A stretch of 27,908 nucleotides of DNA from Candidatus Sediminicultor sextus. GTDB lineage: Bacteria > Atribacterota > Phoenicimicrobiia > Phoenicimicrobiales > Phoenicimicrobiaceae. Positions 5,643-27,908 of the stretch are shown here, one piece after another. How positions within the stretch are numbered: the stretch's first letter is position 1; the number at the start of each line of letters is the position of its first letter. The stretch spans positions 1,845-29,752 of the forward strand of contig JADBKX010000069.1 of assembly GCA_014894735.1 (NCBI GenBank), given 5' to 3'. Below the pieces are notes generated by a model. It saw only the letters and a list, made by a program, of their open reading frames with translations. It did no database searches and was not told the DNA's origin. Position numbers and translations under genes: made by a program.

Positions 5643-5714
5643 TCTATGTTTCCTCTTTTCTTCTTTAATTATTTAATTTTACCAATAAAAATTAGAGATT
5701 ATTGAGAAATTTTA

Positions 5715-5742
5715 TTGACTTCTCTATTTTTATAAGTATAAC
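5715..5742 (+). promoter_or_regulatory. Sigma70-like promoter for the membrane protein gene
   Basis: TTGACT-N16-TATAAC in the divergent gap. Confidence 0.45.
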
Positions 5743-5827
5743 ATATTACTATAGCCTAATTAAATAATTATTGCCTTTAGACTCTACCTACTTAAAAATT
5801 TTTTAAATTGAGGAATGAAGGAAAGAA

Positions 5828-6442: not shown

Positions 6443-6456
6443 ATATTCTTCTTCCT

Positions 6457-6500
6457 GGCTTTCACTTGTGAAAAGCCATAATTTTTTCTCTTTTTTTCTT
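6457..6500 (+). terminator. Probable intrinsic terminator between convergent genes
   Basis: GGCTTTCAC-TT-GTGAAAAGCC stem with one bulge, followed by a long pyrimidine/T tract. Confidence 0.5.
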
Positions 6501-6543
6501 TCCTGAAAAAGCCAACCCATCATCATTTTTAATCGGAAACAAA

Positions 6544-7107
6544 TTATTTTTTATCCAATAAATATATTTTATAATGCCCCGCTGACTGTAACATCAACCA
6601 GATTTCACCAAAAATATTATTAGTAAATTTTTTACCCTGATTAATATAATACTCTACCGCTTCCTTTTCAGTTAAACCTACTCCCTCTTCCACAATTAAA
6701 AATAATTTACCATTATGATTATATTTTTTTTCATTTTTATTGTTTATCCGCTCATTTAAAGAATCACAAAACATTTGGGTTGCTTCAGTTAAGCAATCTT
6801 TTTTATCTTTATTATTTCGGTTATTATGGTTATTTTTTGCCCTCTTTTTCATTAATTTAACTAATCCCCAGGTAGCTTTCGCCTCATCTTTATTATAATA
6901 AACCGGGGTAATTTCAATATTTAAATTATCTGTACAAATACAAGAGGGTTCTTCTTTAATGGGATCACCTATACTAATAAAGCGGTAATCTTCTTTATTC
7001 TTTTTATTATATTCTTTTAGAAAAACTTTACAGGTTTCTTTTTCTGAAAGCTTGTAATCAATTTCTCTGCTACTTCTGTCTTCTTTGATCGATTTCTTGG
7101 GGAGCAT
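6544..7107 (-). CDS. Hypothetical protein, weak PD-(D/E)XK-like pattern
   Basis: 187-aa AT-rich ORF with GGAGG upstream; E...GDP..EEPSCIC...NIEITPVYY, KKY and FGEIWL segments. Confidence 0.65.
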   Translation of the reverse strand: MLPKKSIKEDRSSREIDYKLSEKETCKVFLKEYNKKNKEDYRFISIGDPIKEEPSCICTDNLNIEITPVYYNKDEAKATWGLVKLMKKRAKNNHNNRNNKDKKDCLTEATQMFCDSLNERINNKNEKKYNHNGKLFLIVEEGVGLTEKEAVEYYINQGKKFTNNIFGEIWLMLQSAGHYKIYLLDKK

Positions 7108-13504: not shown

Positions 13505-13633
13505 AAAAATCGAAATTTATCCAAAAAAGTGAACTGTTAAAAGCTCTTGCCCACTCTACAATACTTTGCATCGTAAAGGGTCTTATGGACAAAGAGAGTA
13601 ATGTAACCAATATTCAGGAATGTCTTGATTTAC
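13501..13633 (+). pseudogene. Truncated ArsR/SmtB-family regulator fragment
   Basis: Frame from 13501 reads IEKSKFIQKSELLKALAHSTILCIVKGLMDKESNVTNIQECLDL, an ArsR helix 1-3 pattern; no start codon, and it ends before the recognition helix by running into antisense ptb. Confidence 0.75.
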
Positions 13634-14525
13634 TGCATAAGATAGAGACGGCGATGCAATTTAATTTCACATCACTTTTATCTGCTCGGGAAGGTATTAT
13701 TACCGGAGCTTTGGTACCCACCAGTGTATGTCCTACCTGGTAATTGGCATAATAGGTAAGTGCTTTGCCAAAGATATTTCCAGCTGCAATATCAGGGACA
13801 ATTAGGATATCGGCTTTACCTGCTACCGGTGAAACAATTCCTTTTTTCTCGGCAGCAAATTCTGAAATAGCATTATCTAAAGCCAGCGGCCCATCGATGA
13901 TACAGCCGATAATCTGTTTTCTTTCATTCATTTTGGAAATCATTCCTGCTTTTACAGTCTCTTCCATATCAGGGTTTATGGTTTCTACGGCTGCTAGCAG
14001 GGCAACCTTAGGAGTCTCTATCCCAAGCTTATGGGCAACTTCAACAGCATTATTTATAATTGCCACTAAAGTCTTCACATCTGGTTTGAGGTTTACTCCG
14101 CCATCACTCATTAATACCAATTTGGGATTCCCTTCTCTTTTATCTTCAAAGATAAAAACATCACTGACGATTTTATCAGTCCTTAAACCCCACTCTTTGT
14201 TTAACACCGCCTTTAAAAGGGTGGCTGTCTTTATCTTCCCCTTGAGGAGTGTCCCTCCTTCTTTTACTCTTTCTACTGCCTTTCGAGCTATATCTTCATC
14301 ATCTTTTGCTCCGATAATCTCTTTTACAAAATTACTTTCGCCTAATAAAGAAAGGGATTTTTCAATTTCTGCTTTATCTCCCACTAAAACTCCCTCTCCG
14401 AATCCGTAATCGTAACAATCTTTTAGGGCTTTCAAAGTTTCAATATCTTCTCCACCGGCAACAATAATTTTTTCTATTCCTTTCATTTTTAAATTGTCGA
14501 ATAATTCTTTAAAACTTTTTATCAT
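13614..14525 (-). CDS. ptb: Phosphate butyryltransferase / branched-chain phosphotransacylase
   Basis: LKGKIKTATLLKAVL, SDGGVN, PKVALLAAVE, DGPLALDNAIS, VAGKADILIVP, SRAD; start moved to ATG 14525 behind AGGAGG. Confidence 0.92.
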   Translation of the reverse strand: MIKSFKELFDNLKMKGIEKIIVAGGEDIETLKALKDCYDYGFGEGVLVGDKAEIEKSLSLLGESNFVKEIIGAKDDEDIARKAVERVKEGGTLLKGKIKTATLLKAVLNKEWGLRTDKIVSDVFIFEDKREGNPKLVLMSDGGVNLKPDVKTLVAIINNAVEVAHKLGIETPKVALLAAVETINPDMEETVKAGMISKMNERKQIIGCIIDGPLALDNAISEFAAEKKGIVSPVAGKADILIVPDIAAGNIFGKALTYYANYQVGHTLVGTKAPVIIPSRADKSDVKLNCIAVSILCSKSRHS

Positions 14526-14568
14526 CTTCGAACCTCCTATACACAAATTACACAGATTAAATTTGATT

Positions 14569-15636
14569 TTAGGAATATGTTTTTACTTTTTCTACCCCAT
14601 CTATTACTCTTATCACTGCTTGGGCCAATGCCTTCATCTCTTCTTCTCCCGGATAAACTACCACTGGAGCTATCCAACCCGTACGATCTTTTATCTTATT
14701 TACTAAAATTTTATTATGAGCTATGCCTCCGGTAAGAATAATTGCTTCAACTTTTCCTTTTAATACTGCAGCCATCGCCCCGATTTCTTTAGCAATCTGA
14801 TAACACATCCCTTCAAAAATTAATTCTGCATATTTATCTCCTTGCTCTATTTTCTTCATTACTTCTCTGACATCATTGGTCCCCAGATAAGAGACAAGTC
14901 CGCCCTGATAAGTAATAAGTTTATACAATTCTTTTTCTGAATATTCACCAGAATAACACAGATGGATTAGAGCCTTATTGGGGAGAGAGCCGGTTCGCTC
15001 GGGTGAAAAAGGTCCTCCGTCATTGGCATTATTTACATCAATTATTTTCCCCTTCTCTATTGGAGCAATGGATATCCCCCCACCGAGATGGGCAACAATA
15101 AGGTTTGATTCCTCGAATTTTTTCCCCTGTTCTTTAGCGTAACGGAAGGCACTAGCCCGGATATTTAAAGTGTGAAGCAAGGATTTCCTTTCTATTCCTT
15201 TTAGCCCGGATATCCGGGCGATATCGGTAAATTCATCAACCGATACCGGGTCAGCGATATAGGCAGGGATATTGATTTCTTCAGCTATTTCATGGGCAAT
15301 AATTCCTCCTAAATTGGAGGCATGTTCTATAGGAGAATTTTTTAGGTCATTGATAAGTTTGTTATTAACCTCGTAAGTCCCGGCTTCTAAAGGTTTTAAT
15401 ACACCGCCCCGTCCTATAATCGCTCTTAATGAATTAGAATCTATATTTTTCTTTTTCAAGGTATCCAAAATTATCTTTTTTCTGACTGGACCTTGTTCTA
15501 ATAGCGATTTAAATTGGGAAAGTTCTTCTGTAGAATGGGAGATAGTCTCCTTAAAAATCTCTTTTCCTTTCTGATTAAATATTGCTACTTTGGTAGAAGT
15601 TGAACCGGGATTGATAACCAATATATTTTCTTTCAT
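14569..15636 (-). CDS. buk: Butyrate kinase / branched-chain carboxylic acid kinase
   Basis: INPGSTSTK, GRGG, HASNLG, DPVSVDE, HTLN, HLGGGIS, GPFSPER, LTGGIA, PGEEEM. Confidence 0.96.
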   Translation of the reverse strand: MKENILVINPGSTSTKVAIFNQKGKEIFKETISHSTEELSQFKSLLEQGPVRKKIILDTLKKKNIDSNSLRAIIGRGGVLKPLEAGTYEVNNKLINDLKNSPIEHASNLGGIIAHEIAEEINIPAYIADPVSVDEFTDIARISGLKGIERKSLLHTLNIRASAFRYAKEQGKKFEESNLIVAHLGGGISIAPIEKGKIIDVNNANDGGPFSPERTGSLPNKALIHLCYSGEYSEKELYKLITYQGGLVSYLGTNDVREVMKKIEQGDKYAELIFEGMCYQIAKEIGAMAAVLKGKVEAIILTGGIAHNKILVNKIKDRTGWIAPVVVYPGEEEMKALAQAVIRVIDGVEKVKTYS

Positions 15637-15654
15637 ACATTCCTCCTTACAAAT

Positions 15655-15689
15655 TAGTATATAGTATATAGTATTTAGTATATAGTAAA
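15655..15689. repeat. Five-unit 7-bp tandem repeat (TAGTATA)
   Basis: TAGTATA TAGTATA TAGTATT TAGTATA TAGTAAA between iorB and buk. Confidence 0.9.
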
Positions 15690-15724
15690 GAAATACGGTG
15701 GTAAGTAATGCGTAAAGGGATATT

Positions 15725-16318
15725 TTATTTTTTTACTTCTTTAAATCCCAGCTCAAAGGCTTTTAAATTTGTCTCAATACTTTTGAGAGGTAAGTTTTCT
15801 TTCATAGACTGAATAACTAAATCTTTATCCACCGGAAATCCAGGGGTAGCAACTGCTGCTCCGAGCAGAACCATATTTTCCGATATAATACTTCCTGCTT
15901 CTTTGGCTATTTTTTGGGCATCAATTATTGATAAATTCTTTATTTTTGCTTTTAGTTCGTCAAAAACAGAAGACAGTTCGGGATATTCCGAAATGCCCAG
16001 TGAAACAGTAAAAGGCACAATAGGAGCACTATTTACTATAACAAAAGAGTTGCAGTTTATCTTATTTAAAGACCTTAGAGCTTCTGTTGGTTCAAAAGCA
16101 ATCAATAAATCCGCTGCTCCCTCTTCAATTAGAGGGCTGTGTGCTTCACCAATTTTAAGTTCAGTTACTACTGTCCCTCCTCTTCGAGCCATTCCATGAA
16201 CTTCACTCATTACCACATTCAAACCTTTTCTCATCGCTGCTTCTCCCACAATAGTAGAAGTTTTAATCGTTCCCTGTCCCCCTACTCCAATAAGCTGAAT
16301 CTTATATATATTTTTCAA
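15725..16318 (-). CDS. iorB: Indolepyruvate:ferredoxin oxidoreductase beta subunit
   Basis: GVGGQG, SEVHGMARRGGTV, FEPTEALR, NMVLLGA; true start is probably TTG 16318 overlapping the iorA stop (TTGA), giving MKNIYKIQLIG. Confidence 0.92.
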   Translation of the reverse strand: MKNIYKIQLIGVGGQGTIKTSTIVGEAAMRKGLNVVMSEVHGMARRGGTVVTELKIGEAHSPLIEEGAADLLIAFEPTEALRSLNKINCNSFVIVNSAPIVPFTVSLGISEYPELSSVFDELKAKIKNLSIIDAQKIAKEAGSIISENMVLLGAAVATPGFPVDKDLVIQSMKENLPLKSIETNLKAFELGFKEVKK

Positions 16319-18192
16319 CCTTGTTTTTTCACCTCTATCGCTTTCTTTGGACATATCTGGGCACAAACTCCACAACCATCGCATAATAATGGGTTGATAT
16401 TAACAGAGCCATCTTTTTCTATATAGATAGCCGGACAGGTAAAATTCTTCACGCAGATTAAGCATTTGGTGCACTCTTCCTGGTTAATGGTATATTTGAT
16501 ACTTATACCTTTTTTCCTGTTTTCCCCATCAGTAATCATAGCACAGGGGTGTTTGGTAATAACCACTGCTATACCTTCAAATTGTAGAGCTTCCTTAAAT
16601 ACTTCTTCTGTCTCTTTTAAATCAACCGGGTCAGTGGTCTTTACTAAACCTACACCTATTCCTCGAGCAATCTTCTCTATGGAAACTTCGGGAGCAGGAT
16701 TACCCATTCCATCCAGGGGTATACCGGGATTGGTTTGACCTCCGGTCATTCCGGTTATCCTATTGTCCATAACTACTAATAAAATCTTATCTTTATTATG
16801 AACAGCATTAATTAAAGGAGGAATACCGGCATGAAAGAAGGTTGAATCTCCGATAAAAGATATTACTTTCTGGTTGGTTGCCTTAGAAAACCCGCAGCCA
16901 ATACCTATACTTGAACCCATAGAAATACAGTAATCCCCCATATTATAGGGGGGTTCCATACCCAAGGCATAACATCCTATATCAGTGGAGTAAATTATCT
17001 CTTCTTCCTTTAATTTTAATTTTTTTATAGCTTTTTTTAAAGCAAAATAAGTTGCACGGTGGGGGCATCCGGGACAGAGTATCGCTGACCGTAAAGGCAA
17101 AGAAAGTTTAGTACTATATTTTTCTCTTTTGATTAATTCTTTTTCTACAATTTTTGCCATCCCAAAAGAGATAATATCCGGATTATATTCATAAATTCTG
17201 GGAAGGGTTCCGTCTAACTTGCCATATACTTTTTTCTTTATATTATATTTTCCTATTATGGCTAAAACTTCTTTTTCCATTACCGGTTCCACTTCTTCTG
17301 CTACCAAAATATTATCAACGCTATTTATGAAGTCTAATACTAATTTCTCGGGGAAAGGATAAGAGAAGGTGAGTTTCAAAATTTTAACTTTCAAATTATT
17401 CTCACTAACCACATCCATCACGTAATTAAAGGCACTACCACTGGTGATAATTCCTATCTCTCTACCACCTTTATCAATTATTTTATTAAGAGGAGATTTT
17501 TCGGTTTTTTCTTCAATCTGTTTTAATTTTTCAATTAATTCTTTACGCATTTTTACCACATATACCGGAGTTACTATGAATTGAGAAGGATCCTTTTTAA
17601 AGTATCCTTTCTCTTTTCCCTGAATAACTGTTCCTAAATTTACTACCCCTCTCATATGAGATATTCTGGTAGTAGTACGTATAAGTATGGGAATCTTAAA
17701 TTGTTCTGATAAATCAAAACCAAATTTCATCAGGTCTTTTACTTCTTGCGGATTGGAGGGCTCGAGTAGGGGAATCCCTGCTAAGCGAGCCATAATCCGA
17801 TTGTCTTGTTCATTCTGTGAAGAATACATAGAAGGGTCATCGGCTGATAAAACAATCATCCCGCCTCGCACTCCGGTATAAACTGCGCTCATAAAAGAGT
17901 CAGCTGCTACATTTAAACCTACATGTTTCATAAAAACAAAGGAACGCAATCCAGCGGCTGCGGCTGCAACAGAAACTTCTAACGCCACCTTCTCGTTTGA
18001 AGAAAATTCAAAATACACTCCTGCTTCCCGGGCAATTTTGTAAAATACATTTCCTATCTCTGAAGAAGGGGTACCAGGATAGGTGGAAACGACCGAAACA
18101 CCGCCTTCTAAAGCCCCTCGAACAGCAGCTTCGTTGCCCAATAAAAACAGTTTTTCTCCTTCTTTTTCAGTTAAAATTTCTTTTACTTTCAA
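16315..18192 (-). CDS. iorA: Indolepyruvate:ferredoxin oxidoreductase alpha subunit
   Basis: LLGNEA, YPGTPSSE, NEKVA, KHVGLN, SSQNEQD, LCPGCPHR, DIGC, GDSTFFH TPP motif, C-terminal 2x[4Fe-4S] CxxCxxC motifs; TTG start with AGGAG SD. Confidence 0.96.
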   Translation of the reverse strand: MKVKEILTEKEGEKLFLLGNEAAVRGALEGGVSVVSTYPGTPSSEIGNVFYKIAREAGVYFEFSSNEKVALEVSVAAAAAGLRSFVFMKHVGLNVAADSFMSAVYTGVRGGMIVLSADDPSMYSSQNEQDNRIMARLAGIPLLEPSNPQEVKDLMKFGFDLSEQFKIPILIRTTTRISHMRGVVNLGTVIQGKEKGYFKKDPSQFIVTPVYVVKMRKELIEKLKQIEEKTEKSPLNKIIDKGGREIGIITSGSAFNYVMDVVSENNLKVKILKLTFSYPFPEKLVLDFINSVDNILVAEEVEPVMEKEVLAIIGKYNIKKKVYGKLDGTLPRIYEYNPDIISFGMAKIVEKELIKREKYSTKLSLPLRSAILCPGCPHRATYFALKKAIKKLKLKEEEIIYSTDIGCYALGMEPPYNMGDYCISMGSSIGIGCGFSKATNQKVISFIGDSTFFHAGIPPLINAVHNKDKILLVVMDNRITGMTGGQTNPGIPLDGMGNPAPEVSIEKIARGIGVGLVKTTDPVDLKETEEVFKEALQFEGIAVVITKHPCAMITDGENRKKGISIKYTINQEECTKCLICVKNFTCPAIYIEKDGSVNINPLLCDGCGVCAQICPKKAIEVKKQG

Positions 18193-18245
18193 TTTTTTTC
18201 TCCTATTTTTTCTTTGTATCGCGTAGTTTAGTCGTCAAATAACTA

Positions 18246-19124
18246 TTAATAATATTTTTTTATATAATTCTTAACGTCATCTCTGGTTCCCTTAAAAGGA
18301 CCCGGTTTTTCCATCTTTAAAGAAACTAAAGCAGCAGCAAAGAGGAGCGCTTCCTCTATTCTTTTATCTAACCTTTCGGTGATATAAGCACTGAAACAGG
18401 TATCACCCCGGCCGGTTCTTCCTGAAAGATTTCTCGGTTTTAAAGGACAGGTATAATGTTTTTTACCATTATAAATTAAAACTTCTTTATTGTGAGTAAT
18501 CATAATTTCCTTTGTTCCCCACCCGAAGAGTATTTCCGCTGCTTTCTTTCTATCTTTTGTTCCCGTCATAATTTCAGCTTCAGCTGCATCAGTTTTTAAA
18601 TAATCAATATAAGGGAGATATTCCTTCTTTTTTTCCCAATCTATAAAGACCATCTCTTTATTTTCCACCACAGTCCTTAAAAACCCTTGAACGTCCAGGG
18701 CAACTCTCCCTTTGTTATGCAGAAATCTTATCATTTCACTATCAAATTCCCCCGAGATGAGGCCGGCAAAATGATATATCTGGGAAGCAATATTATCCGG
18801 AACATCGTCGATAGTGAAGGGATCTGCAATCGATAGAGCAGTACAGGTTCTTCTTTCTCTATCTGCGCTATGATAAATATTTCTGATGGAAGTGGTATTT
18901 CTGGAATCTAAAGCAGTAATATTTTCTTGGGGAATAATAAATGCCTCCAAATACTTTCTATCCCGTGGGGATAACTTAGTCAAAATACCTATTTTATGAC
19001 CGATAGCGTAGGAAGCACAGGATGAATAAAAAACTGCCCCTCCAATTTCCTTTACAGTTTCTCCTTGATATATGTTTTCATCAACAGAGATATGTCCTAT
19101 GACAAAGCTATCATATCTTTTCAT
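18246..19124 (-). CDS. Ribokinase/PfkB-family kinase, predicted PPi-dependent (TM0415-like), copy 1
   Basis: IGHISVD, TTSIRNIY, DVQGFLR, LKTDAAEA, RTGRGDT (GRGD instead of GAGD), SLKMEKPGPF. Confidence 0.9.
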   Translation of the reverse strand: MKRYDSFVIGHISVDENIYQGETVKEIGGAVFYSSCASYAIGHKIGILTKLSPRDRKYLEAFIIPQENITALDSRNTTSIRNIYHSADRERRTCTALSIADPFTIDDVPDNIASQIYHFAGLISGEFDSEMIRFLHNKGRVALDVQGFLRTVVENKEMVFIDWEKKKEYLPYIDYLKTDAAEAEIMTGTKDRKKAAEILFGWGTKEIMITHNKEVLIYNGKKHYTCPLKPRNLSGRTGRGDTCFSAYITERLDKRIEEALLFAAALVSLKMEKPGPFKGTRDDVKNYIKKYY

Positions 19125-19156
19125 TTTTACCTCTTACTCTTTTTTCACATAAAACA

Positions 19157-19196
19157 ATTATACTCCCAAAGCATCCCTTTGAAAAATATTTTTAAA
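19157..19196 (-). promoter_or_regulatory. Promoter of kinase 1 with near-palindromic operator candidate
   Basis: TATAAT at 19157-19162 (minus); TTGAAAAATATTTTTAAA at 19179-19196 overlaps the expected -35. Confidence 0.45.
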
Positions 19197-19212
19197 CTAC
19201 TTTCCATAAATT

Positions 19213-19296
19213 GTTTTGAATAAAAATAAAAATGTGGGAAGGCCGTAATTGAAAAATTGGGGTGATGAATTTCTTAAAGCTTTTTTACCTGAAAAA
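19213..19296 (+). pseudogene. Possible HRDC-domain remnant
   Basis: One frame reads VLNKNKNVGRP*LKNWGDEFLKAFLPEK, resembling the HRDC end motif (L..I.GVG..KLEKYG.EFL); internal TAA at 19246-19248. Confidence 0.35.
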
Positions 19297-19311
19297 ATAA
19301 TTTACCTGTCT

Positions 19312-20412
19312 TTAATTATCGTGTTTAGAAAAAGGAGAGGTTTTCTTTAATTTGTAGTTATTGCCGGTACTTTCTATAAGTTCGTTAACTCTTTGCAGGC
19401 TATATTTATAAAACTTCTTGTAACGGGGCTTTAATTCCAAACACAATACTCCATTGTAATTTTTAAATAGGCGGAATATCTTATCATAGGGAATCTCTCC
19501 CCAGCCTACAGGCATATGCATATCACCTATGCCAAACTGAATTAGATCGATATCTCGATTTTCAGGTGAGACTTTGGGTTTGCCAAAACAATCATGAATA
19601 TGCAGATGTTTTATATACGGTAGGGCTAATTTTATAGAATCTAAAAATTTGAAGTGATAATATTTGGAGGCAAGATAAGCATGTCCAAAATCAAGGGTAA
19701 TTCCTACGTTATCCCGATCAATTTTTTTAACTTGGTCAACTAATTCTTCAATCTTCGTTCCATATTTATACTTTCTAACTTCTTGCAAAAAGATGGGCTT
19801 GGGTGTCTGAGGAGAAAGGCTATAAGAAGGAATTACTCTACTATTACCAAATCGTCTTGATAATTCCCAGAGAGTCTCTTCCTCTAACTCAGGACAAGTA
19901 TTTTCAATAACAATGGTCACCCCTAAATCTTTAGCAAAGTCAGCTAATTCTTGCAAAGTTTTTACTTCTATCTTCTTTGATCTTTCAATCTTGTTTAGAG
20001 AAGGTACTGTTAGTATTCCATTTTGTCCTAACCATTCCCCTCTAAACTCTTCCTGTTGTAAAGGAATTTTTCCACTATGGTATACAAAAATTTCTGCTCC
20101 TATAGCATTAGTAAATTCAATTCCAGATTTGAAGATTTCTTTTTGTAATTTAAAATTACCAGAGTCCATCAAATTTAGCAGATCGGGACCGTGAATAGTA
20201 TATTTTAATTTAAATTCCTTCAGGATGTCTGTAATTGCTCTGGTTTGCAGCCAATTCAGTTTCCCCTTAAAGATTGCATCGACTCCGTGGACAGGTATTT
20301 CGGCATAATCAAAACCGATATCTTGAAAATTACCTAAAGTCTTCTCTAATAGATCTAAGTCACCATCTATAGTGGAAGAATCTACGTTTATTCCAATCCC
20401 TTTTATATGCAT
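19312..20412 (-). CDS. Sugar-phosphate isomerase/epimerase family (xylose isomerase-like TIM barrel)
   Basis: GFDYAEIP, TIHGP, VYHSG, IENT, TLDFGH, HLHIHD, DMHMPVGWG, LELKP metal-site motifs. Confidence 0.85.
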   Translation of the reverse strand: MHIKGIGINVDSSTIDGDLDLLEKTLGNFQDIGFDYAEIPVHGVDAIFKGKLNWLQTRAITDILKEFKLKYTIHGPDLLNLMDSGNFKLQKEIFKSGIEFTNAIGAEIFVYHSGKIPLQQEEFRGEWLGQNGILTVPSLNKIERSKKIEVKTLQELADFAKDLGVTIVIENTCPELEEETLWELSRRFGNSRVIPSYSLSPQTPKPIFLQEVRKYKYGTKIEELVDQVKKIDRDNVGITLDFGHAYLASKYYHFKFLDSIKLALPYIKHLHIHDCFGKPKVSPENRDIDLIQFGIGDMHMPVGWGEIPYDKIFRLFKNYNGVLCLELKPRYKKFYKYSLQRVNELIESTGNNYKLKKTSPFSKHDN

Positions 20413-20455
20413 AGTTTTCGCTTCAAACCATAAATATTTTTATTAATTATTTCAC

Positions 20456-20483
20456 ATTATAGCACAATCAAATTCATATACAA
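20456..20483 (-). promoter_or_regulatory. Sigma70 promoter of the TIM-barrel gene
   Basis: Minus strand TTGTAT-N16-TATAAT with a TG extended -10. Confidence 0.55.
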
Positions 20484-20523
20484 GTATAGTTAAAAATTGT
20501 TTAAAATAATTTTTTTCAAATAG

Positions 20524-21285
20524 TTAATTTTCTTTTATATTTTTTAGAATAATATCTCTGCCATAATTAATCTCTTTTATCAATATATGTCCAACCTTTG
20601 GAGTATTTATTTCAGCATCCGTTGTATCAACAATGTAAGTCTCCAAATCACAATCTTTTTTCAACCCTTCAATAAATTTAATCTGCTCTCCTCGGTTATT
20701 ATATATTTTATTTCCGCGAATTGTATTTTTTAAAAGAATTTCAACGCCTAATGGGTCATGGATTTTTCTACATATCTCTTTATCTAAGTCATTTTGATCT
20801 ACCTCGATATCGTATATACCAGCTCTCCCGCATATTGGGCAAAATTCTACAAATGGATGATTCTTATTTTCTGTCGTTACCTCATAATGGGCGCTCAGAG
20901 CCAATCGATAAAATATTATATTCCCATTGCTTAACTTCAATTTTACCCTTTCAGATTTATTATTCATCAAATTTTTGTAATAATATCTAATATGTAATTG
21001 ATGATCGTGGCTGTTAGCAGGATTATCTATATCTGTGTAAGGTTGCAAACCTTTATATCTTCCTTCCGTATCGCTTCCTTCATTACTATTAAGCAAAATA
21101 TGGCGTAAACGATAATTTTCGCTAAAATTATTCTTAATATTACAATATTTCATTAAATTAAATATTACTAAATAAACAGCTTCAAGATATCCTTCTACAA
21201 TATTGCAATTTACATAAAACCAGATATTAGGATATCTCGGTATTTCTTTTGAGATAATATCTTTTTTTGGTAATTTAAAATCCAT
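20524..21285 (-). CDS. Orphan hypothetical protein with His/Cys metal-binding-like motifs
   Basis: Start moved to ATG 21285 (MDFKLPKK) behind GGAGGA; motifs HDHQLHIRYYY, AHYEV and CPIC-x19-CRKIH. Confidence 0.75.
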   Translation of the reverse strand: MDFKLPKKDIISKEIPRYPNIWFYVNCNIVEGYLEAVYLVIFNLMKYCNIKNNFSENYRLRHILLNSNEGSDTEGRYKGLQPYTDIDNPANSHDHQLHIRYYYKNLMNNKSERVKLKLSNGNIIFYRLALSAHYEVTTENKNHPFVEFCPICGRAGIYDIEVDQNDLDKEICRKIHDPLGVEILLKNTIRGNKIYNNRGEQIKFIEGLKKDCDLETYIVDTTDAEINTPKVGHILIKEINYGRDIILKNIKEN

Positions 21286-21388
21286 TTTTATCCTCCGCTT
21301 ATAAATATAATTAGAAGTAATTATTGTTCTCTTGTGTATACACAAAATATTAGTTGTATGGATTATTTTACTTTATTTCATGGTTTAA

Positions 21389-21417
21389 CTATACGACATA
21401 ACTTTTAAAAATCCTTC
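21389..21417 (-). promoter_or_regulatory. SigH-like promoter upstream of the orphan
   Basis: GAAGGATTT-N11-GTCGTATAG, same geometry as 7473-7501 with GTAT for GAAT. Confidence 0.35.
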
Positions 21418-21422
21418 TTTTC

Positions 21423-21472
21423 TTGAAAAATATTTTAGGAGATTGTTTTTCCGTTTTATTCTTTGCTATAAT
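21423..21472 (+). promoter_or_regulatory. Promoter of kinase 2 with the operator candidate shared with kinase 1
   Basis: TTGAAAAATATTTT 21423-21436 is identical to 19179-19192; TGCTATAAT extended -10 at 21464-21472. Confidence 0.5.
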
Positions 21473-21529
21473 AAATGGACAAAGAAAGTAAAATTATTAA
21501 ATTATTGACTTTATATTGGAGATAATAAA

Positions 21530-22417
21530 ATGGAAACTAACACTAAATTTTATGATATTGCTTTTATAGGACATTACACCAAAGACACAATTGTTTCTGC
21601 TTCGGGCATCAGAGTTGTTGATGGTGGTGCCTTTAATTATGGTGCTAATGTAGCTGCAAGAATGGGGTTAAAAGTAGCAGCAGTTACCCGTTTGGCAGAA
21701 GAAGATTTTCATGTAGTAGAAAAACTCAAGGGTTTAGGTGTGGATGTATTCGCACATATCTCCCCTCAGTCTACTTGTCTGCGTCTGGAATATCCCACTT
21801 CCGATGTTGATGAACGGGTCATATATGTAACCAGCTCAGCAGGTCCCTTCACCCCGGCTGAAGTAGAAAAAATTCAAGCCCGGGCAATTGTTGTGGGCGC
21901 ATCTATGCGTGATGAGGTTAGCTTGCAACTGATAGAGGAACTGTCGAAAAAGAAAACTATTCTTTCCGCTGACGTGCAGAGCTTTATCCGGGTAAATGAT
22001 AATGGTAAATTAGTTCCCAAGAAATGGCCGGAAAGAGACGATATATTTGCCTGTTTGGATATTTTAAAAACTGATGCAATAGAAGCGGGACTTTTATTCG
22101 GTGAATCTGATCTCTATACAGCTGCTCAAAAAATGCATGATCTGGGACCTAAAGAAGTAATCATCACTCACCGTGAAGGTTTGTTAGTCTTTGCCGATGG
22201 CAAATTTTATGAAGAAAAATTTTTCCCCAAAGAAATTATCGGAAGAAGCGGACGAGGAGATACTTGTATTGCTTCCTATACAGCCAAACGGTTAAGTGCT
22301 TCCCCTCAAGAAGCAACAACTTGGGCAGCGGCAGTAACCAGTTTAAAGATGGAAGCCGAAGGACCTTTCCAACGAACTATGCAAGAGGTTAATAATCTTA
22401 TTTATAATAAATATTAA
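21530..22417 (+). CDS. Ribokinase/PfkB-family kinase, predicted PPi-dependent (TM0415-like), copy 2
   Basis: IGHYTKD, ADVQSFIR, LKTDAIEA, FFPKEIIGRSGRGDT, SLKMEAEGPF. Confidence 0.9.
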   Translation: METNTKFYDIAFIGHYTKDTIVSASGIRVVDGGAFNYGANVAARMGLKVAAVTRLAEEDFHVVEKLKGLGVDVFAHISPQSTCLRLEYPTSDVDERVIYVTSSAGPFTPAEVEKIQARAIVVGASMRDEVSLQLIEELSKKKTILSADVQSFIRVNDNGKLVPKKWPERDDIFACLDILKTDAIEAGLLFGESDLYTAAQKMHDLGPKEVIITHREGLLVFADGKFYEEKFFPKEIIGRSGRGDTCIASYTAKRLSASPQEATTWAAAVTSLKMEAEGPFQRTMQEVNNLIYNKY

Positions 22418-22501
22418 GAATACAAATTAAGTTAGCAAACCCTATTTTTTAGTAGGTTTTAGGTCTCCGGATAAACCATCTTAAAGAACAAAAAATCGTT
22501 T

Positions 22502-23599
22502 TTATTTTTTAATCTCCTCATAAGGTATAACATGTAAACTTTTTTCCTTTAAAATTACAGATACTTCCTCTCCTATAGAATAAATTTTATGCTCCTGAGG
22601 GTTAGTAATCTCTACAGTAAGGAGATTCTTATCAACTTCAATTTCGTACACCATCCTAGAGCCAAGATAAATTACCTGGTTGATTATGCCATTAATAGCA
22701 CCTGATTTCTTAGGTTCTAGTTCTACAGATTCAGGTCTAATAATCAGTAAAATTTTATCTCCTTCTGAAAAGGTATTTTTTAATATATAAACTTTATATT
22801 TTACCCCTTTTATATCGACTTCAATTTCTTCCTGAGATAAAATATTTGCCACTCGTCCCTCTAAAAAGTTCGCTTTACCGATAAAATCAGCTACAAAATA
22901 ATTAACCGGATGGCTATATATTTCCTGAGGGGTGCCTATCTGTTGAATTTTACCAGCATTCATAATAACTACTCGGTCAGAAAGAGTCATTGCCTCTTCC
23001 TGGTCATGAGTAACATAGACAGATGTTATTCCAACTCTTTGTTGTATTTTACGAATCTCTAATCTGGTGGATACTCGCATCTTGGCATCGAGATTGGAAA
23101 GAGGTTCATCAAGCAGTAGCACCTTTGGTTCCATAATTAGAGAACGAGCCAGACTAACCCGTTGCTGTTGACCTCCGGAAAGTTGTGCTGGAGATCGATT
23201 ATTTAACCCTTTTAAACCCACCAAATTCATAATGGTTTCTGTTCTTTCTCGAATATTTTTTTCTTTCTCTCGATGAATCTTTAATCCATAAGCAATATTT
23301 TGATATACAGTCATATGGGGGAATAGAGCATAATTCTGAAATACCATAGTAGTAGGTCGCTGATTGGGAGGAGTAGTAGTTACTTCTTCCCCGTCAATAA
23401 AGATTTCCCCAGAAGTAGGAAGCTCAAAACCAGAGATCATCCGAAGGGCAGTAGTTTTTCCACATCCAGATGGCCCTAAAAGAGTAACTAGTTCCCCTTC
23501 TTTTACTTCTAAATTCACCTTATCAACTGCAATAACAGTATCTTTTTTACTTCCAAAAATTTTTACTAGATTTTTGAGCACAAGGTAATCTTGTTTCAT
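22502..23599 (-). CDS. ABC importer ATPase (FbpC/AfuC/PotA class) with TOBE domain
   Basis: GPSGCGKT, VFQNYALFPH, LSGGQQQ, LLLDEP, YVTHDQ. Confidence 0.95.
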   Translation of the reverse strand: MKQDYLVLKNLVKIFGSKKDTVIAVDKVNLEVKEGELVTLLGPSGCGKTTALRMISGFELPTSGEIFIDGEEVTTTPPNQRPTTMVFQNYALFPHMTVYQNIAYGLKIHREKEKNIRERTETIMNLVGLKGLNNRSPAQLSGGQQQRVSLARSLIMEPKVLLLDEPLSNLDAKMRVSTRLEIRKIQQRVGITSVYVTHDQEEAMTLSDRVVIMNAGKIQQIGTPQEIYSHPVNYFVADFIGKANFLEGRVANILSQEEIEVDIKGVKYKVYILKNTFSEGDKILLIIRPESVELEPKKSGAINGIINQVIYLGSRMVYEIEVDKNLLTVEITNPQEHKIYSIGEEVSVILKEKSLHVIPYEEIKK

Positions 23600-23625
23600 A
23601 AAAAATCCTTTCCTTTTCTAAATAA

Positions 23626-25335
23626 TTAGCCAATAATATCGACAGTTCTTACCCCTTTACCAATACGATTCACTATTAGCTGAATAATTCCTAAGGCAAT
23701 TAATACAATAATTATCAATAAATTGGACATCGCTGCTGCTTGGGCATATCTGCTATTATCCACAAAACCCAGAATAGCTATAGTAATTAAATTCCATTTG
23801 CCCGATACTACAAAAATTACAGCACTGATAGCAGTCATAGCTTTTACAAAATTATAAGCAAGACCGGAGAAAAAAGCCGGAGCAATCATAGGTAAGGTAA
23901 TTCTGCGAAAAGTAGTATTACTATCTGCACCCAAGTCAGTTGAAGCCTCCTCGATAGAAGGATCAATTTGTTGAAGAGCAGCAATTCCAGAACGTATTCC
24001 CACTGGCATATTTCTAAATATAAGAAGGATGATAATAATCCAAGCTGTTCCGGTCATTATAAAAGGAAGCAGCACAGTTTTTTGATTAAAGGCTAAGATA
24101 TATCCTATTCCAACTACAGTCCCGGGAACAGCAAAAGTAAGCATAGAAATAAACTCCATTACACCGCGGCCAATAAATTTTTTCCTTATTACCAGAAAAG
24201 AGATAAAGATGCCTATAATACCGGCTATAGGTGTAGCGACAGCTGAAAGAACTAAAGAATCAATTAAATAATCTTTACCTACCTGATACATCTCTACATA
24301 ATGTTTTAGAGTTAAGGTGGGGTTAACTCCCCAGAGGGTCTGAAAAGAACCATGAACAATAGTTCCATAAAAAAGAAAAACAATTCCGGTAAAAATAATA
24401 CAGCAGGAATATACCGGTAGCTTTATATACCATTCCAGCTGCTTAATAGTTGCGCCGGTTGGCTTTCCGGTAACTGTAACATATGATTTTCGAGAAACCC
24501 AGTATTTTTGCAGAAAAAAAGCAACTATGGTTGGAATGAACAGAAGTATCGCCAGAGTAGAACCCCGAGATAAATCATACATCCCGGTAATTTGCAAATA
24601 AGCCTGCACTGAAAGAACTCGATAATTCCCAGAAATAACCATAGGGTTCCCGAAGTCAGCTAAAGATTGGATAAATACCAAAAGCCAGGCACTGGCAATA
24701 CCCGGGGTAGATAAAGGTAAAGTAATGGTAGAAAACACTTTTACCCTCGATGCTCCCAAATCCATAGAAGCCTCTTCTAATGATGGGTCAATAGCTTGAA
24801 GAATACCGTAAAGAACTAAAAAAGCTGTAGGGGCATAAGCAATCGTTTCAACAAGTATCAATCCTGCCAACCCATATATGGTATAGTCACCAATAATTTT
24901 AGTTAAAAAAGGATTAAGACTTCCTGCTCTTCCAAAGAGAAGAATGGCTGATAGTGCAACTACAAAGGGTGGGGAGATAATAGGGAAGGTCGCAGTTACC
25001 CGAAAGAAATTTTTAAAGGGCATTGGAGTTCTGGTAAGGGCATAAGCAAAAATAAACCCAATTATAGTACCTATGGTTGCAGTGTACACCCCTAAAAGCA
25101 TACTATTAAAGAAAGGTTGATAATAATACCTTTTGGAAAAAATTGCTGAATAATTGGAAAAATTCAATTGCTTATCAATAAATAAACTTGTTTTAAAGAC
25201 TTGAAATATCGGAAATACCACAAACACTATTAAGCAATAAAAAATAGCCAGTATAGATATAAATAGTAATGGTTCTTTCCATATCAAACGGAGATTCCCT
25301 ATGACTTCTTGTATTTTTCTTTTTGAACTGTTCAT
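23626..25335 (-). CDS. ABC importer permease, fused double TM module (FbpB/AfuB class)
   Basis: About 12 hydrophobic segments; two EAA loops, EEASMDLGAS and EEASTDLGAD. Confidence 0.93.
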   Translation of the reverse strand: MNSSKRKIQEVIGNLRLIWKEPLLFISILAIFYCLIVFVVFPIFQVFKTSLFIDKQLNFSNYSAIFSKRYYYQPFFNSMLLGVYTATIGTIIGFIFAYALTRTPMPFKNFFRVTATFPIISPPFVVALSAILLFGRAGSLNPFLTKIIGDYTIYGLAGLILVETIAYAPTAFLVLYGILQAIDPSLEEASMDLGASRVKVFSTITLPLSTPGIASAWLLVFIQSLADFGNPMVISGNYRVLSVQAYLQITGMYDLSRGSTLAILLFIPTIVAFFLQKYWVSRKSYVTVTGKPTGATIKQLEWYIKLPVYSCCIIFTGIVFLFYGTIVHGSFQTLWGVNPTLTLKHYVEMYQVGKDYLIDSLVLSAVATPIAGIIGIFISFLVIRKKFIGRGVMEFISMLTFAVPGTVVGIGYILAFNQKTVLLPFIMTGTAWIIIILLIFRNMPVGIRSGIAALQQIDPSIEEASTDLGADSNTTFRRITLPMIAPAFFSGLAYNFVKAMTAISAVIFVVSGKWNLITIAILGFVDNSRYAQAAAMSNLLIIIVLIALGIIQLIVNRIGKGVRTVDIIG

Positions 25336-25367
25336 ATTTTAAATCCAATAATATTTATGGCGATAAT

Positions 25368-25417
25368 ATAATAATCCCTGCTACTAAAAATAATCAACTC
25401 GTAACAGGGATTATTAT
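25368..25417 (-). terminator. Intercistronic stem-loop between SBP and permease (stabiliser/attenuator)
   Basis: ATAATAATCCCTG (25368-25380) and CAGGGATTATTAT (25405-25417) form a perfect 13-bp stem, 17 bp with one G-U on the transcribed minus strand. Confidence 0.7.
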
Positions 25418-25446
25418 TTCTCTATTATCTGGTTAACTAAATTTAA

Positions 25447-26451
25447 TTATTGTCCAATTCTATCTCTCCAGGCAGTTACCAATTCATCTTTGTGCTCGCC
25501 TGCCCAGATGGCGTCATACTCGATTAATTTTACTTTATCTAAAGTTACAGCACCTTCGGCAACTGTTGCTTTGGGATTAATAGGCAAACGGCTATATTTC
25601 TGGAATAAATCCTGTGCTTGTTTAGTAAAACACCAATCGATAAATTGCTTACCCAATTCAGGTTCAGGACCACCTTTAATTAAAGAAAGACCTCCAACTT
25701 CATAACCAGTTCCTTCTGAGGGGAAGGTCATAACTACCGGATATCCTTCATTTATACCTTTAGCAACGATATCGTGCGAAAAAGCAATTCCCACTGCTAT
25801 TTCACCTAATCCAACCATCGGTATACATCCAGTTCCTGATTTAGTATATTGAAAAATACTTTGTTTATCAAATTCTTCCCACCAGTTCAGAGCTTTTTCC
25901 AGACCAAGCATTTGGATAAGAGTTGCATAAGTAGTATATGAAGTACCAGAAGTATAGGGATAAGCTATAGCAACGTTTTTCTTAAAAGCTGGGTTCAAAA
26001 GTTGAGACCAGGAAGTCGGTGCTTCTACCTTATGTTCCTTTAAAAAATTTATATTAGAAACGAATCCAATGGCACCGGTATAAAATCCTGTCCAGGCCCA
26101 ATCTATAGCATGAAATGATTCTGGCAATTCGAAATCTGTATTAGGTTTGTAAGGTTCCAGTAATCCTTTTTTAGCAGCGTTTATATGATCTGTATTAGAG
26201 CCGGCATGCCAAACACTGGCTTGGGGATTTGCGGATTCTGCTTCCATTCGAGCTGCAACCTCACCAGAGGACATTCTCACCCATTCCACATCGATTCCAG
26301 TTTCTTTTTCAAAAGCCTCAATGTAATACTGGGCCTCTTCGGTATCAAATGCTGTATACATATGAAGCACCTTACCTGCTGCCAGACCCGTTGCAAACAC
26401 GCTACCTACCATAACCATGATTAATAACAATACTAAAGTTAACCTTTTCAT
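25447..26451 (-). CDS. ABC solute-binding protein, AfuA/InoE-like (sugar- or inositol-phosphate binding predicted)
   Basis: Start moved to ATG 26451 behind GAGGAGG; Sec-type signal peptide without a lipobox Cys; NPQASVW, TSGTSYT, YTKSG, FSHD, EGTGYEVGG motifs. Confidence 0.88.
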   Translation of the reverse strand: MKRLTLVLLLIMVMVGSVFATGLAAGKVLHMYTAFDTEEAQYYIEAFEKETGIDVEWVRMSSGEVAARMEAESANPQASVWHAGSNTDHINAAKKGLLEPYKPNTDFELPESFHAIDWAWTGFYTGAIGFVSNINFLKEHKVEAPTSWSQLLNPAFKKNVAIAYPYTSGTSYTTYATLIQMLGLEKALNWWEEFDKQSIFQYTKSGTGCIPMVGLGEIAVGIAFSHDIVAKGINEGYPVVMTFPSEGTGYEVGGLSLIKGGPEPELGKQFIDWCFTKQAQDLFQKYSRLPINPKATVAEGAVTLDKVKLIEYDAIWAGEHKDELVTAWRDRIGQ

Positions 26452-26607
26452 AAAAAACCTCCTCATTTATTTTTTTTATGATTTTTACCATACAGAATAT
26501 ATAATCTTTATATTCCTGTATATAATATACTACGCTTTTTATTAACCTCCCTTCTTTTTTTATAAATAATTTTAAAAAATTAGAATTTCTCAAAATTATC
26601 TAACCTT

Positions 26608-27651
26608 TTATAATATAAGCAGCCTACCCTGGGGATTAAATTTTGCATACAAGGCTTTTCGTATCTCCTGTTTTTCTCTATAAGATCTTAGGTGATCATA
26701 ACCATCTTCCTGCCAAGGCGGAGAAGTAAAGAGCGCTTGGTTAAATGCCTGTAAAAGTTTATCTTCAAATTCCCCTTTGTACTCCCTCTTTATAAATCGC
26801 TGAAATGCCTGAGGAAAATTATTCCAGGCTCCCAGTTCTTGGCCAGGAGACGTGGGATAAAAAAATCCGTTATTTGCTTTTACTGCTTTTAAATCTCCAC
26901 CACCATCACCGATCATTAATACCTGATCATCTTCATAATTGCCTGCCCTTTTTGCTACTTCAATGTGGTGTCCCTTTGACCCCATTTCCTGACCGGCAAT
27001 AATTTGGACATATCGAGCAATCCCTTGAGCTTCCCAGTAATTTGCTAAATCTGAGTATGGAGTTTTAGAAACAATTAATATATCTGCATATTGAGCCATT
27101 AATTCTAAACATTCTTTTACCTTGTCAAAAGGCGGAATCTTTGCAGAAATATGCGGGAACATTCTATTTACAGCCTCACTCCAACCTAAAAGTTTATATA
27201 AAGACAAATCAAGAGGATTTTGATTTAAATATTCCTCCAAACTTGGATTACCTAATCCTAATTTATTCTCTTTAGTATAGGCGATATATTGGTTTAAAGG
27301 TTTTATATTAGGTAGTTTTATATGTCCTTCTTGTAATACTTGCTGAACATCTGTCCTGTTTTGAAGAGCAGTGAGGGTAAGTTGGATGGCAATAAATCTA
27401 TTACATCCTCTATCCACAGAAAAAAGATTGTAGTATTCAGCAACTTCTCTAAAATAAGACTCGATGCCACATAACTGATAAAATTCCATAAATTGTGGAT
27501 GAAAAATCAACATCTGTTTTCCATTCATATTATCAGTAACACAACCATCGGTATCGATAGCTATTAAAAAATCTTTTGTTCTTTTAAATTTTCTTAATTG
27601 TTGTTCTGCATCTTCCTTTATCTGTTTTTCGTTAAGCCTGGGTAAGGCCAT
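26608..27651 (-). CDS. HAD-superfamily phosphatase
   Basis: Motif I IDTDGCVTD, motif II VSKT, motif III SKGHH, motif IV MIGDGGGD. Confidence 0.85.
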   Translation of the reverse strand: MALPRLNEKQIKEDAEQQLRKFKRTKDFLIAIDTDGCVTDNMNGKQMLIFHPQFMEFYQLCGIESYFREVAEYYNLFSVDRGCNRFIAIQLTLTALQNRTDVQQVLQEGHIKLPNIKPLNQYIAYTKENKLGLGNPSLEEYLNQNPLDLSLYKLLGWSEAVNRMFPHISAKIPPFDKVKECLELMAQYADILIVSKTPYSDLANYWEAQGIARYVQIIAGQEMGSKGHHIEVAKRAGNYEDDQVLMIGDGGGDLKAVKANNGFFYPTSPGQELGAWNNFPQAFQRFIKREYKGEFEDKLLQAFNQALFTSPPWQEDGYDHLRSYREKQEIRKALYAKFNPQGRLLIL

Positions 27652-27673
27652 TATTTCATCTCCTTCCTGATAT

Positions 27674-27868
27674 TAGCGTACAGCGGATAGCGTTTAGCGT
27701 ATAGTATAAATCATTTATCAATTTGGTTAGCTAGTTATTTGGTTATTTAGTTAGCCAGTTTGATACTAAATCCTCAACTAACTAACCAGGTAACCAGCTA
27801 ACTATTTCTCAATATCCGCTTTCTTCCTCTTTCTTCGCTATATACTATATACGATATACTATATACTA
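27674..27868. repeat. Nested inverted repeat of 7-mer arrays (outer) and 8-mer arrays (inner)
   Basis: Outer arms 27674-27708 (TAGCGTA CAGCGGA TAGCGTT TAGCGTA TAGTATA) and 27834-27868 (TTCGCTA TATACTA TATACGA TATACTA TATACTA); inner arms 27724-27752 (TGGTTAGC TAGTTATT TGGTTATT TAGTT) and 27774-27804. Confidence 0.85.
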
Positions 27869-27870
27869 AT

Positions 27871-27908
27871 TTATTTTCTATATTCTACTGGTACATATTC
27901 TCCGCATT
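27871..27908 (-). CDS. 3' end of an upstream gene entering from the right edge
   Basis: Minus frame reads ...CGEYVPVEYRK* with TAA at 27871-27873, ending just before the repeat array. Confidence 0.4.
   Translation of the reverse strand, partial: CGEYVPVEYRK

Follow-up and report, generated by a model that had tools for sequence, protein, structure and literature searches.

Genes of the locus

A 27,908-nucleotide stretch of the genome of Candidatus Sediminicultor sextus, an uncultured bacterium of the Atribacterota (assembly GCA_014894735.1, contig JADBKX010000069.1), referred to here as the window, carries a block of eight genes at 18246-27651 (9.4 kb) that includes a predicted importer of phosphorylated compounds and two kinases (K1, K2) related to the pyrophosphate (PPi)-dependent inositol kinase of Thermotoga maritima. 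The window is piece C163:1845-29752 of a scaffold in a metagenome-assembled genome (MAG) of 1.43 Mb and 35% GC that is 90% complete. The original prediction, made from the sequence alone, placed at this block a candidate for an undescribed PPi-driven pathway in which an imported cyclitol or sugar phosphate is dephosphorylated, phosphorylated again with PPi and epimerised. All eight open reading frames (ORFs) that it named are present (Table 1), and their gene classes stand apart from the label of epimerase given to the TIM barrel; IolG, IolM and IolN are absent from the window, as it had stated. The cluster continues past the edge of the window at 27908: beyond a 100-N scaffold gap, on the same strand as the HAD-superfamily hydrolase, lie genes for a PPi-dependent phosphofructokinase (PPi-PFK), a LarA-like protein and 6-phosphogluconate dehydrogenase (6PGDH). 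An 836-aa ORF that joins Lar_N to PFK was rejected as an artefact, its reading frame running through the 100-N gap.

Table 1. Features of the locus, with positions in the window.
Feature	Position	Strand	Match or evidence
K1, PfkB kinase; TM0415 group, acceptor pocket resembling the myo-inositol pocket of TM0415	18246..19124	-	PDB 1VK4/5YSP, E 2.6e-48
AP_endonuc_2 TIM barrel, metallophosphoesterase-like or epimerase-like	19312..20412	-	Pfam PF01261, 6.8e-31
Orphan, 253-aa conserved protein rich in His/Asp/Glu/Cys, accessory gene	20524..21285	-	164 homologues
K2, PfkB kinase of the TM0415 group with an acceptor pocket of the "No. 49/Levilinea" type	21530..22417	+	PDB 7E4L, E 5.8e-47; 1VK4, E 9.1e-46
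ABC transporter ATPase with a TOBE_2 domain	22502..23599	-	PF00005, 2e-38, plus TOBE_2
Fused double-domain ABC permease	23626..25335	-	two BPD_transp_1 stretches
AfuA-type periplasmic substrate-binding protein (SBP), predicted to bind the phosphate of a ring sugar or polyol	25447..26466	-	AfuA 4R72, E 1.6e-47
HAD-superfamily hydrolase; C1 cap, large; paired with the PPi-PFK that lies upstream	26608..27651	-	HAD_2, 1.1e-5
Repeat-rich spacer upstream of HAD, with an assembly break just past it	27674..27872		heptamer array 27830-27872

Predicted PPi-type kinases and an AfuA-type importer

The discovery of PPi-dependent PfkB kinases dates from 2018 (Nagata et al., PMC5931981). TM0415 of T. maritima is a PPi-dependent myo-inositol 1-kinase of the ribokinase family (PDB 1VK4, 5YSP), in which K171, R229 and R232 bind PPi and F221 and M266 obstruct the ATP pocket, and the motif RXGRGD was proposed for the PPi-dependent group (Nagata 2018, PMC5931981). 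K1 and K2 are both approximately 40% identical to TM0415 over their full length, and their residues were mapped onto it from HMMER alignments. The motif is present in each (K1 R236-T-G-R239-G-D241, K2 R239-S-G-R242-G-D244), the catalytic aspartate (TM0415 D234) being D241 in K1 and D244 in K2, and the third basic PPi ligand (TM0415 K171) corresponds to K177 and K180, respectively. The donor residues of K2 are complete (five of five: K180, F231, R239, R242, M274), with F231 and M274 forming the ATP-occluding pair; those of K1 are K177, L228, R236, R239 and M271, so that the pair consists of L228, which replaces F221, and M271. No departure from RXGRGD is seen among 14 Atribacterota sequences or among 77 kinases of the 80 loci from many phyla described below; these kinases include the donor-residue variants K-F-R-R-L (23 of the 77) and K-L-R-R-L. 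K1 and K2 are relatives of TM0415 with a PPi-donor signature, which in K1 has leucine for F221, and are predicted to use PPi instead of ATP. The assignment of both GRGD kinases to the PPi type in the original prediction is upheld by these determinants and by the match to TM0415 (E ~1e-47), but they are not undescribed, since both types, including an Atribacteria homologue, had already been tabulated (Nagata 2018, PMC5931981).

The two kinases differ in their acceptor pockets. TM0415 contacts inositol through D11, N78, Q141 and R145, and its pocket also includes I76, S89 and L116 (Nagata 2018, PMC5931981). K1 keeps all four contacts in a pocket made of D15, I80, N82, C94, L122, Q146 and R150, where C94 replaces S89, as it does in entries of Table 1 of Nagata et al.; its pattern is one found in their Supplementary Table 1 (for example No. 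17), of a type classed there as acceptor-unchanged. A search for K1 homologues returned, among the matches listed, only close Atribacterota relatives. The pocket of K2 (T17, A34, L84, L86, I98, S125, S240) does not match that of TM0415, and because of the changes N78L, S89I and L116S a different hydroxyl or a different acceptor is to be expected. The K2 pattern is identical to that of an Atribacteria protein (OGD17089.1) in Supplementary Table 2 of the same study (PMC5931981), and departs from that of enzyme No. 49 of Levilinea saccharolytica only in G26A, at I76 (L versus M) and at S89 (I versus L). No. 49 is specific for PPi and makes three inositol monophosphates from myo-inositol, none of which is Ins(1)P (Nagata 2018, PMC5931981).

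The closest solved relatives of the SBP are AfuA (PDB 4R72, approximately 40% identity) and the pyridoxal phosphate binder P5PA (6WCE, E 1.5e-40). AfuA binds glucose 6-phosphate (G6P), fructose 6-phosphate (F6P) and sedoheptulose 7-phosphate (S7P) for the AfuABC importer of Actinobacillus and Citrobacter, contacting the phosphate through S37 and T150 and the ring through H205, D206 and E229 (Sit et al. 2015, PMC4546632; PDB 4R72). Because all five contacts are kept in the SBP (S67, T175, H231, D232 and E256, in the same order), it is well supported that a ring-shaped monophosphate ester is probably imported, an inositol phosphate and a hexose phosphate being both compatible with the pocket; the import of a phosphorylated substrate, as first proposed, is therefore probable. 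AfuABC has the same layout, with a single fused permease and an ATPase, but the neighbours here are predicted PPi-dependent kinases and PPi-PFK, and the ligand is predicted from sequence. The permease resembles PhnU2 at a score below the cut-off (318 versus 593 bits) and is 80-97% identical across the order, and the adjacency of the ATPase to K2 is conserved in relatives.

Conservation, accessory genes and genomic context

The relatives surveyed were 61 related genomes, in which kinases were sought by a single search with K2 as the query (E <= 1e-20) and synteny was read from 20 retrieved regions. Relatives of K1 and/or K2 occur in 33 of the 61 genomes, and in at least 14 a single contig carries both. 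The SBP, permease and ATPase genes with an adjoining K2 recur across two families in most of the retrieved loci, and K1 and HAD are usually within 10 kb of them, HAD and K1 being adjacent and co-directional in family f2. The TIM barrel is variable, the loci of family f2 carrying other AP_endonuc_2 barrels, and the orphan is present in 12 of the 61 genomes. The block of eight genes does not form a single conserved unit; the conserved core is the importer with K2. Conservation of the cluster extends over an order of Atribacterota for the importer, K2, K1 and HAD, which co-occur, and fails for the orphan and the TIM barrel.

In species genomes, a scan for kinase relatives turned up at least 570 loci; for the best 80, which come from many phyla, neighbours within 7 kb were clustered. 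A major facilitator superfamily (MFS) transporter of the organophosphate:inorganic phosphate (Pi) antiporter type lies directly upstream of K2 relatives at 28 of these 80 loci (median overlap -18 nt), and a beta-propeller phytase lies directly downstream at 12. The other neighbours of K2 relatives are IolG (23 loci), IolM (20), IolO (19) and IolN (12), the representatives of which score over NCBIfam cut-offs, together with a LacI regulator (20), a TonB receptor (12), PHO4 (12) and an AfuA-type importer or SBP (9). At every locus with two kinases, an N78-type (TM0415-like) enzyme is paired with an L78-type (K2-like) enzyme. K2 accompanied by an AfuA-type importer is also found in MAGs of Spirochaetaceae, Verrucomicrobia and Firmicutes, in which a search for HAD homologues (not extended to PFK and 6PGDH) detected none, and AfuA-type SBPs are located inside iol gene clusters of Chloroflexi (loci L088, L115).

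A recurrent unit among these loci comprises LacI, IolG, the MFS transporter of organophosphate-antiporter type and a K2-type kinase, followed by a beta-propeller phytase or a metallophosphoesterase, with a TonB receptor. It occurs in MAGs of KSB1, Ignavibacteria, Fidelibacterota, Cytophagia-like and other bacteria (L056, L059, L064, L067, L080, L105 and others), and looks like an undescribed locus for utilisation of phytate or inositol phosphates.

T. maritima reportedly has IolG, IolM, IolN and IolO with the InoEFGK transporter in a cluster of importer and kinase; its PPi-dependent kinase, like the predicted ones here, reportedly adjoins genes for an ABC importer and for a TIM barrel of the AP_endonuc_2 family. 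The present locus differs from that cluster in that IolM, IolN and IolO were not found in the 90% complete genome, IolG is on a separate contig, the TIM barrel is not IolO, and there are two kinase paralogues at the locus, against the single kinase described for T. maritima. The inositol regulon of T. maritima is under the control of IolR (PMC3750489).

The HAD hydrolase has motifs I to IV (D33-T-D35, S195, K226, G-D248-G-G-G-D252) and matches Pfam HAD_2 at 26 bits (cut-off 23.8); it gave no PDB sequence match at E <= 0.1, and only generic HAD clusters in a protein-atlas search. Its homologues, among the matches listed, are nearly all from Atribacterota with identity of at least 72%, and it is present in 30 of the 61 relatives, in families f1 and f2 only. 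In relatives the order 6PGDH, LarA-like gene, PPi-PFK (306 bits, cut-off 273), HAD is contiguous, with a gap of approximately 22 nt between PFK and HAD, and a 46%-identical HAD homologue lies between 6PGDH and PPi-PFK on an unrelated contig of 64% GC (3.7 kb). The LarA-like (Lar_N) and 6PGDH genes that precede PPi-PFK and HAD, at L003:4195-5381 and 5534-7039, are conserved across the order. HAD belongs foremost with PPi-PFK and 6PGDH, and since these are its conserved partners, also in the 64% GC lineage, the role of phosphatase for the imported substrate that had been proposed for it is weakened and doubtful.

The TIM barrel scores 19.4 bits against the curated model of IolO (cut-off 300), 21 bits against psicose epimerase (cut-off 300) and 32 bits against the phosphodiesterase CbiR (cut-off 105), its best curated match, also under the cut-off; its sole PDB sequence match is MJ1311 (3WQO). 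The metal ligands of endonuclease IV (Endo IV) follow the order H-H-E-D-H-H-D-H-E, and in a motif-level alignment all nine are matched by identical residue types (H74, H112, E170, D241, H244, H271, D297, H299, E326), which are invariant in ten orthologues and give the protein a likeness to the Endo IV/CbiR/MJ1311 branch; a true IolO (locus L053) has no counterparts of H74, H112, D297 and H299. IolO and the ketose 3-epimerases are characterised by an E-D-H-E single-metal site without extra His/Asp ligands. On the other side, the overall similarity to the Nfo protein encoded in the window itself is insignificant (hhalign probability 5.6%), and the Foldseek neighbours of the AlphaFold2 (AF2) model, a weak one (mean predicted local distance difference test score (pLDDT) 63.6) in which D297 and H299 fall in a poorly modelled loop, are ketose 3-epimerases and MJ1311. 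To judge from these scores, the TIM barrel is not IolO; it may be either an epimerase or a phosphoesterase, and the choice is left between the two. The epimerisation step of the original prediction is not supported here, as the candidate enzyme is not IolO-like, aligns with an Endo IV-type ligand set and varies among relatives.

On another Atribacterota contig (L130:8445-13338), a TIM-barrel and K1 pair is followed directly by a gene for a membrane proton-pumping pyrophosphatase (H+-PPase). In some members of the genus, an inserted gene for a 708-aa glycosidase, similar to GDE_N_bis and mannosylglycerate hydrolase, separates K1 from the TIM barrel or from the orphan (L030:9381-11507 in genome G010, L035:2494-4617 in G024), which hints at a glycosylated substrate in the strains that carry the insertion.

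The start codon of the orphan, judged by the starts of its homologues, is the ATG at 21285 rather than the TTG at 21345. The family of 164 homologues has 29 invariant columns, including H92, H94, H97, H132, E134, H142, C148, C151, H175 and D176, and no Pfam, NCBIfam or PDB match. Its AF2 model has a pLDDT of 85.5, but no fold relatives were found with Foldseek against the PDB (E <= 0.001), VIA-wide (best Z 4.6) or in the ESM Atlas (TM <= 0.37), and a protein-atlas feature search gave no usable match; the survey thus flags a large family without a detectable fold relative. In genome G051 the orphan adjoins a glycerophosphodiester phosphodiesterase (GDPD) and another ABC system. Within the family (loci L009, L007, L132, L133), closer homologues are found beside GDPD and an ABC system or beside HAD and PHP genes, and distant homologues often have signal peptides and lie directly behind TonB-type outer-membrane receptors on Acidobacteriota-like contigs, one of them near a phosphatidylinositol-specific phospholipase C (PI-PLC).

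Elsewhere in the genome, a small contig (C146) encodes IolG (472 bits, cut-off 355) and a LacI regulator, and an H+-PPase is encoded as well; on its gene content, the organism has a PPi economy comprising the predicted H+-PPase and the adjacent PPi-PFK. Contig C7, with zinc-dependent alcohol dehydrogenases and a TIM barrel, was rejected as an iol cluster, the dehydrogenases scoring 183-198 bits against a cut-off of 450. Myo-inositol-phosphate synthase (MIPS) was not found in this 90% complete genome and is present in 3 of the 61 relatives. There was no match in the MAG to PF00459, the family of inositol monophosphatase (IMPase), FBPase and CysQ, for which 14 of 14 control genomes were positive, nor to PF01066, CDP-alcohol phosphatidyltransferase, for which 13 of 14 were positive; if true, the absence of these two families would imply an unusual synthesis of phospholipid head groups. 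Salvage of inositol monophosphate (InsP) for synthesis of di-myo-inositol phosphate (DIP) or inositol lipids was set aside, as neither MIPS nor CDP-alcohol phosphatidyltransferase was found in this genome and MIPS is rare among the relatives.

Near-identical DNA is present in permafrost, soil and freshwater-sediment metagenomes of 13 studies. Metatranscriptome contigs of at least 90% identity, from four libraries in as many studies, cover most of the genes, and a single RNA-library contig of 1856 nt spans the junction of SBP and HAD. The word depth of the SBP is the highest among bins in three of the four RNA libraries, where per-contig depth cannot rank genes.

A scan of 17800-27908 for promoters and terminators was at background (45 promoters versus 38.5 expected, 6 terminators versus 7 expected), so the limits of operons rest on spacing and synteny only. 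Downstream of K1 by 53 nt and on the same strand are iorAB (indolepyruvate:ferredoxin oxidoreductase), a butyrate-kinase-like gene and phosphotransbutyrylase (13614-18192); the adjacency of K1 to iorAB is retained in G001 and G010, and partly in family f2. Two arrays of TAGTATA-like heptamers, each of 43 nt (15651-15693 and 27830-27872) and 91% complementary to each other, flank the 12-kb block from iorB to HAD. RNA-library contigs jump or rejoin at both arrays, and the scaffold breaks directly after the second.

Proposed function and its alternatives

The reading that we favour, with a probability of approximately 0.5, is that the locus takes up an inositol phosphate, or else a cyclitol or sugar phosphate much like it, and links its interconversion with free inositol to PPi/Pi, and that it is a composite of modules; from the signature residues and synteny described above we infer the substrate, the direction of the kinases and all of the enzymatic activities. 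The gene string would run 6PGDH, LarA-like gene, PPi-PFK, HAD, importer of AfuA/InoE type, K2, orphan, TIM barrel, K1, of which the window would hold the distal part, and it would be a set of modules instead of one linear pathway of eight steps. A first module (importer, K2, K1) would most likely take up inositol monophosphate or a close cyclitol or sugar phosphate and interconvert it with free inositol by means of two PPi/Pi-dependent PfkB phosphotransferases of differing regiospecificity, the predicted target of K1 being the 1-hydroxyl, as for TM0415, and that of K2 another hydroxyl, as for the Levilinea enzyme. The free inositol could then be oxidised by the IolG encoded elsewhere in the genome. 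A second module (PPi-PFK, HAD, 6PGDH) would belong to central sugar-phosphate metabolism and draw on the same pool of PPi, and the TIM barrel and the orphan would be variable accessory enzymes, possibly phosphoesterases.

Several observations weigh against this proposal. A tblastn search of the 90% complete genome gave no IolM, IolN or IolO; the leucine of K1 at the position of F221 departs from the ATP-occluding pair of TM0415; the RNA-library contigs may reflect carry-over of DNA; and Nagata et al. doubted that myo-inositol is the true acceptor of TM0415, for which its Km is 12 mM, or of No. 49 (PMC5931981). In addition, the conservation of all five AfuA contacts makes hexose or heptose 6-phosphates equally possible as cargo, and such a cargo would suit the adjacent PPi-PFK and 6PGDH.

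This last point leads to an alternative that is possible, if on the unlikely side, in which the importer is the equivalent of AfuABC for G6P, F6P or S7P and feeds PPi-PFK and 6PGDH, HAD is a sugar-phosphate phosphatase or mutase, and the kinases have a separate inositol function and are mere neighbours. The identity of the SBP to 4R72 and its five contacts are in keeping with such a role, as are the co-directional and conserved order of 6PGDH, LarA-like gene, PPi-PFK, HAD and importer and the occurrence of HAD, PPi-PFK and 6PGDH as a trio without kinases on the 3.7-kb contig of the 64% GC lineage. Against mere neighbourhood stand the persistence of K2 beside the importer across two families and in the MAGs of Spirochaetaceae, Verrucomicrobia and Firmicutes in which no HAD homologue was detected, and the AfuA-type SBPs within Chloroflexi iol clusters.

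Uptake of inositol phosphate could also be followed by operation of the kinases in reverse, an unlikely but testable variant in which K1 and K2 convert InsP and Pi to inositol and PPi, acting on imported InsP of D- and L-type, so that the energy of the ester would be saved as PPi for PPi-PFK or the H+-PPase. It would account for the K2 relatives directly behind MFS transporters of the organophosphate:Pi antiporter type at 28 of 80 loci and beside AfuA-type importers, phytases and IolG, an enzyme that requires free inositol; the lack of any detected IMPase family gene in this genome, the high Km of TM0415 for inositol and the invariable pairing of N78-type with L78-type enzymes fit it too. The reaction is uphill under standard conditions (a general estimate, not a computed value), the Km of TM0415 for PPi, less than 15 uM (Nagata 2018, PMC5931981), favours the forward direction, phytases, metallophosphoesterases or HAD may carry out the dephosphorylation instead, and no published assay of the reverse reaction was found. 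An extension that we hold with equally little confidence is that the N78/L78 pair acts on imported inositol monophosphates as a phosphate shuttle that is both reversible and energy-neutral: running backwards, the two enzymes would yield PPi from either enantiomeric InsP, a dephosphorylation that would conserve energy, and with one running each way, phosphate would be moved between positions 1 and 3 without ATP. If true, this would explain why such kinases are found behind organophosphate importers and with phytases in many uncultured phyla.

The scheme of the original prediction, in which HAD dephosphorylates the import, K1 and K2 phosphorylate it again with PPi at another position or twice, and the TIM barrel epimerises the product, is supported only in part and as a whole now appears decidedly improbable. 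All of the enzyme classes that it requires are found inside 9.4 kb, the acceptor pockets of K1 and K2 do differ, and HAD adjoins K1 in family f2; but the conserved partners of HAD are PPi-PFK and 6PGDH, the variable TIM barrel has Endo IV-like ligands and falls far below the IolO cut-off, and hydrolysis followed by renewed phosphorylation squanders the ester bond, contrary to the "ATP-sparing" logic of the scheme. Least probable of all is a phosphodiester as the substrate, such as glycerophosphoinositol or DIP (the synthesis of which is reported for some Atribacteria), cleaved by the TIM barrel and/or the orphan with the kinases processing the products: the retention in the TIM barrel, by alignment, of all nine Endo IV ligands (Endo IV being a phosphodiesterase), its weak likeness to CbiR and the neighbours of the orphan (GDPD and ABC in G051, HAD and PHP elsewhere, PI-PLC on an Acidobacteriota contig) would suit it, but the SBP pocket looks suited to monoesters, most of the relatives with importer and kinases lack the TIM barrel and the orphan, and the fold neighbours of the weakly modelled TIM barrel are epimerases.

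With uptake and PPi/Pi-linked interconversion of inositol phosphate as the preferred reading, the most useful new lead is that, across phyla, kinases of two pocket types are paired behind importers of organophosphates; the kinases and the importer link are themselves of known kinds. The 2018 study that described the kinases did not analyse their genomic context (Nagata 2018, PMC5931981). The family is tied to predicted uptake systems for phosphorylated compounds (ABC importers of AfuA type and MFS transporters of the organophosphate:Pi antiporter type), to phytases and to inositol oxidation genes of the Thermotoga type, and these ties span Atribacterota, Chloroflexota, Acidobacteriota, Ignavibacteria, KSB1 and others. 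The conserved pairing of importer and kinase offers a testable lead on the physiological role of PPi-dependent inositol kinases, including their operation in reverse, and bears on how energy-limited anaerobes of sediment and permafrost may use organic phosphorus and pyrophosphate.

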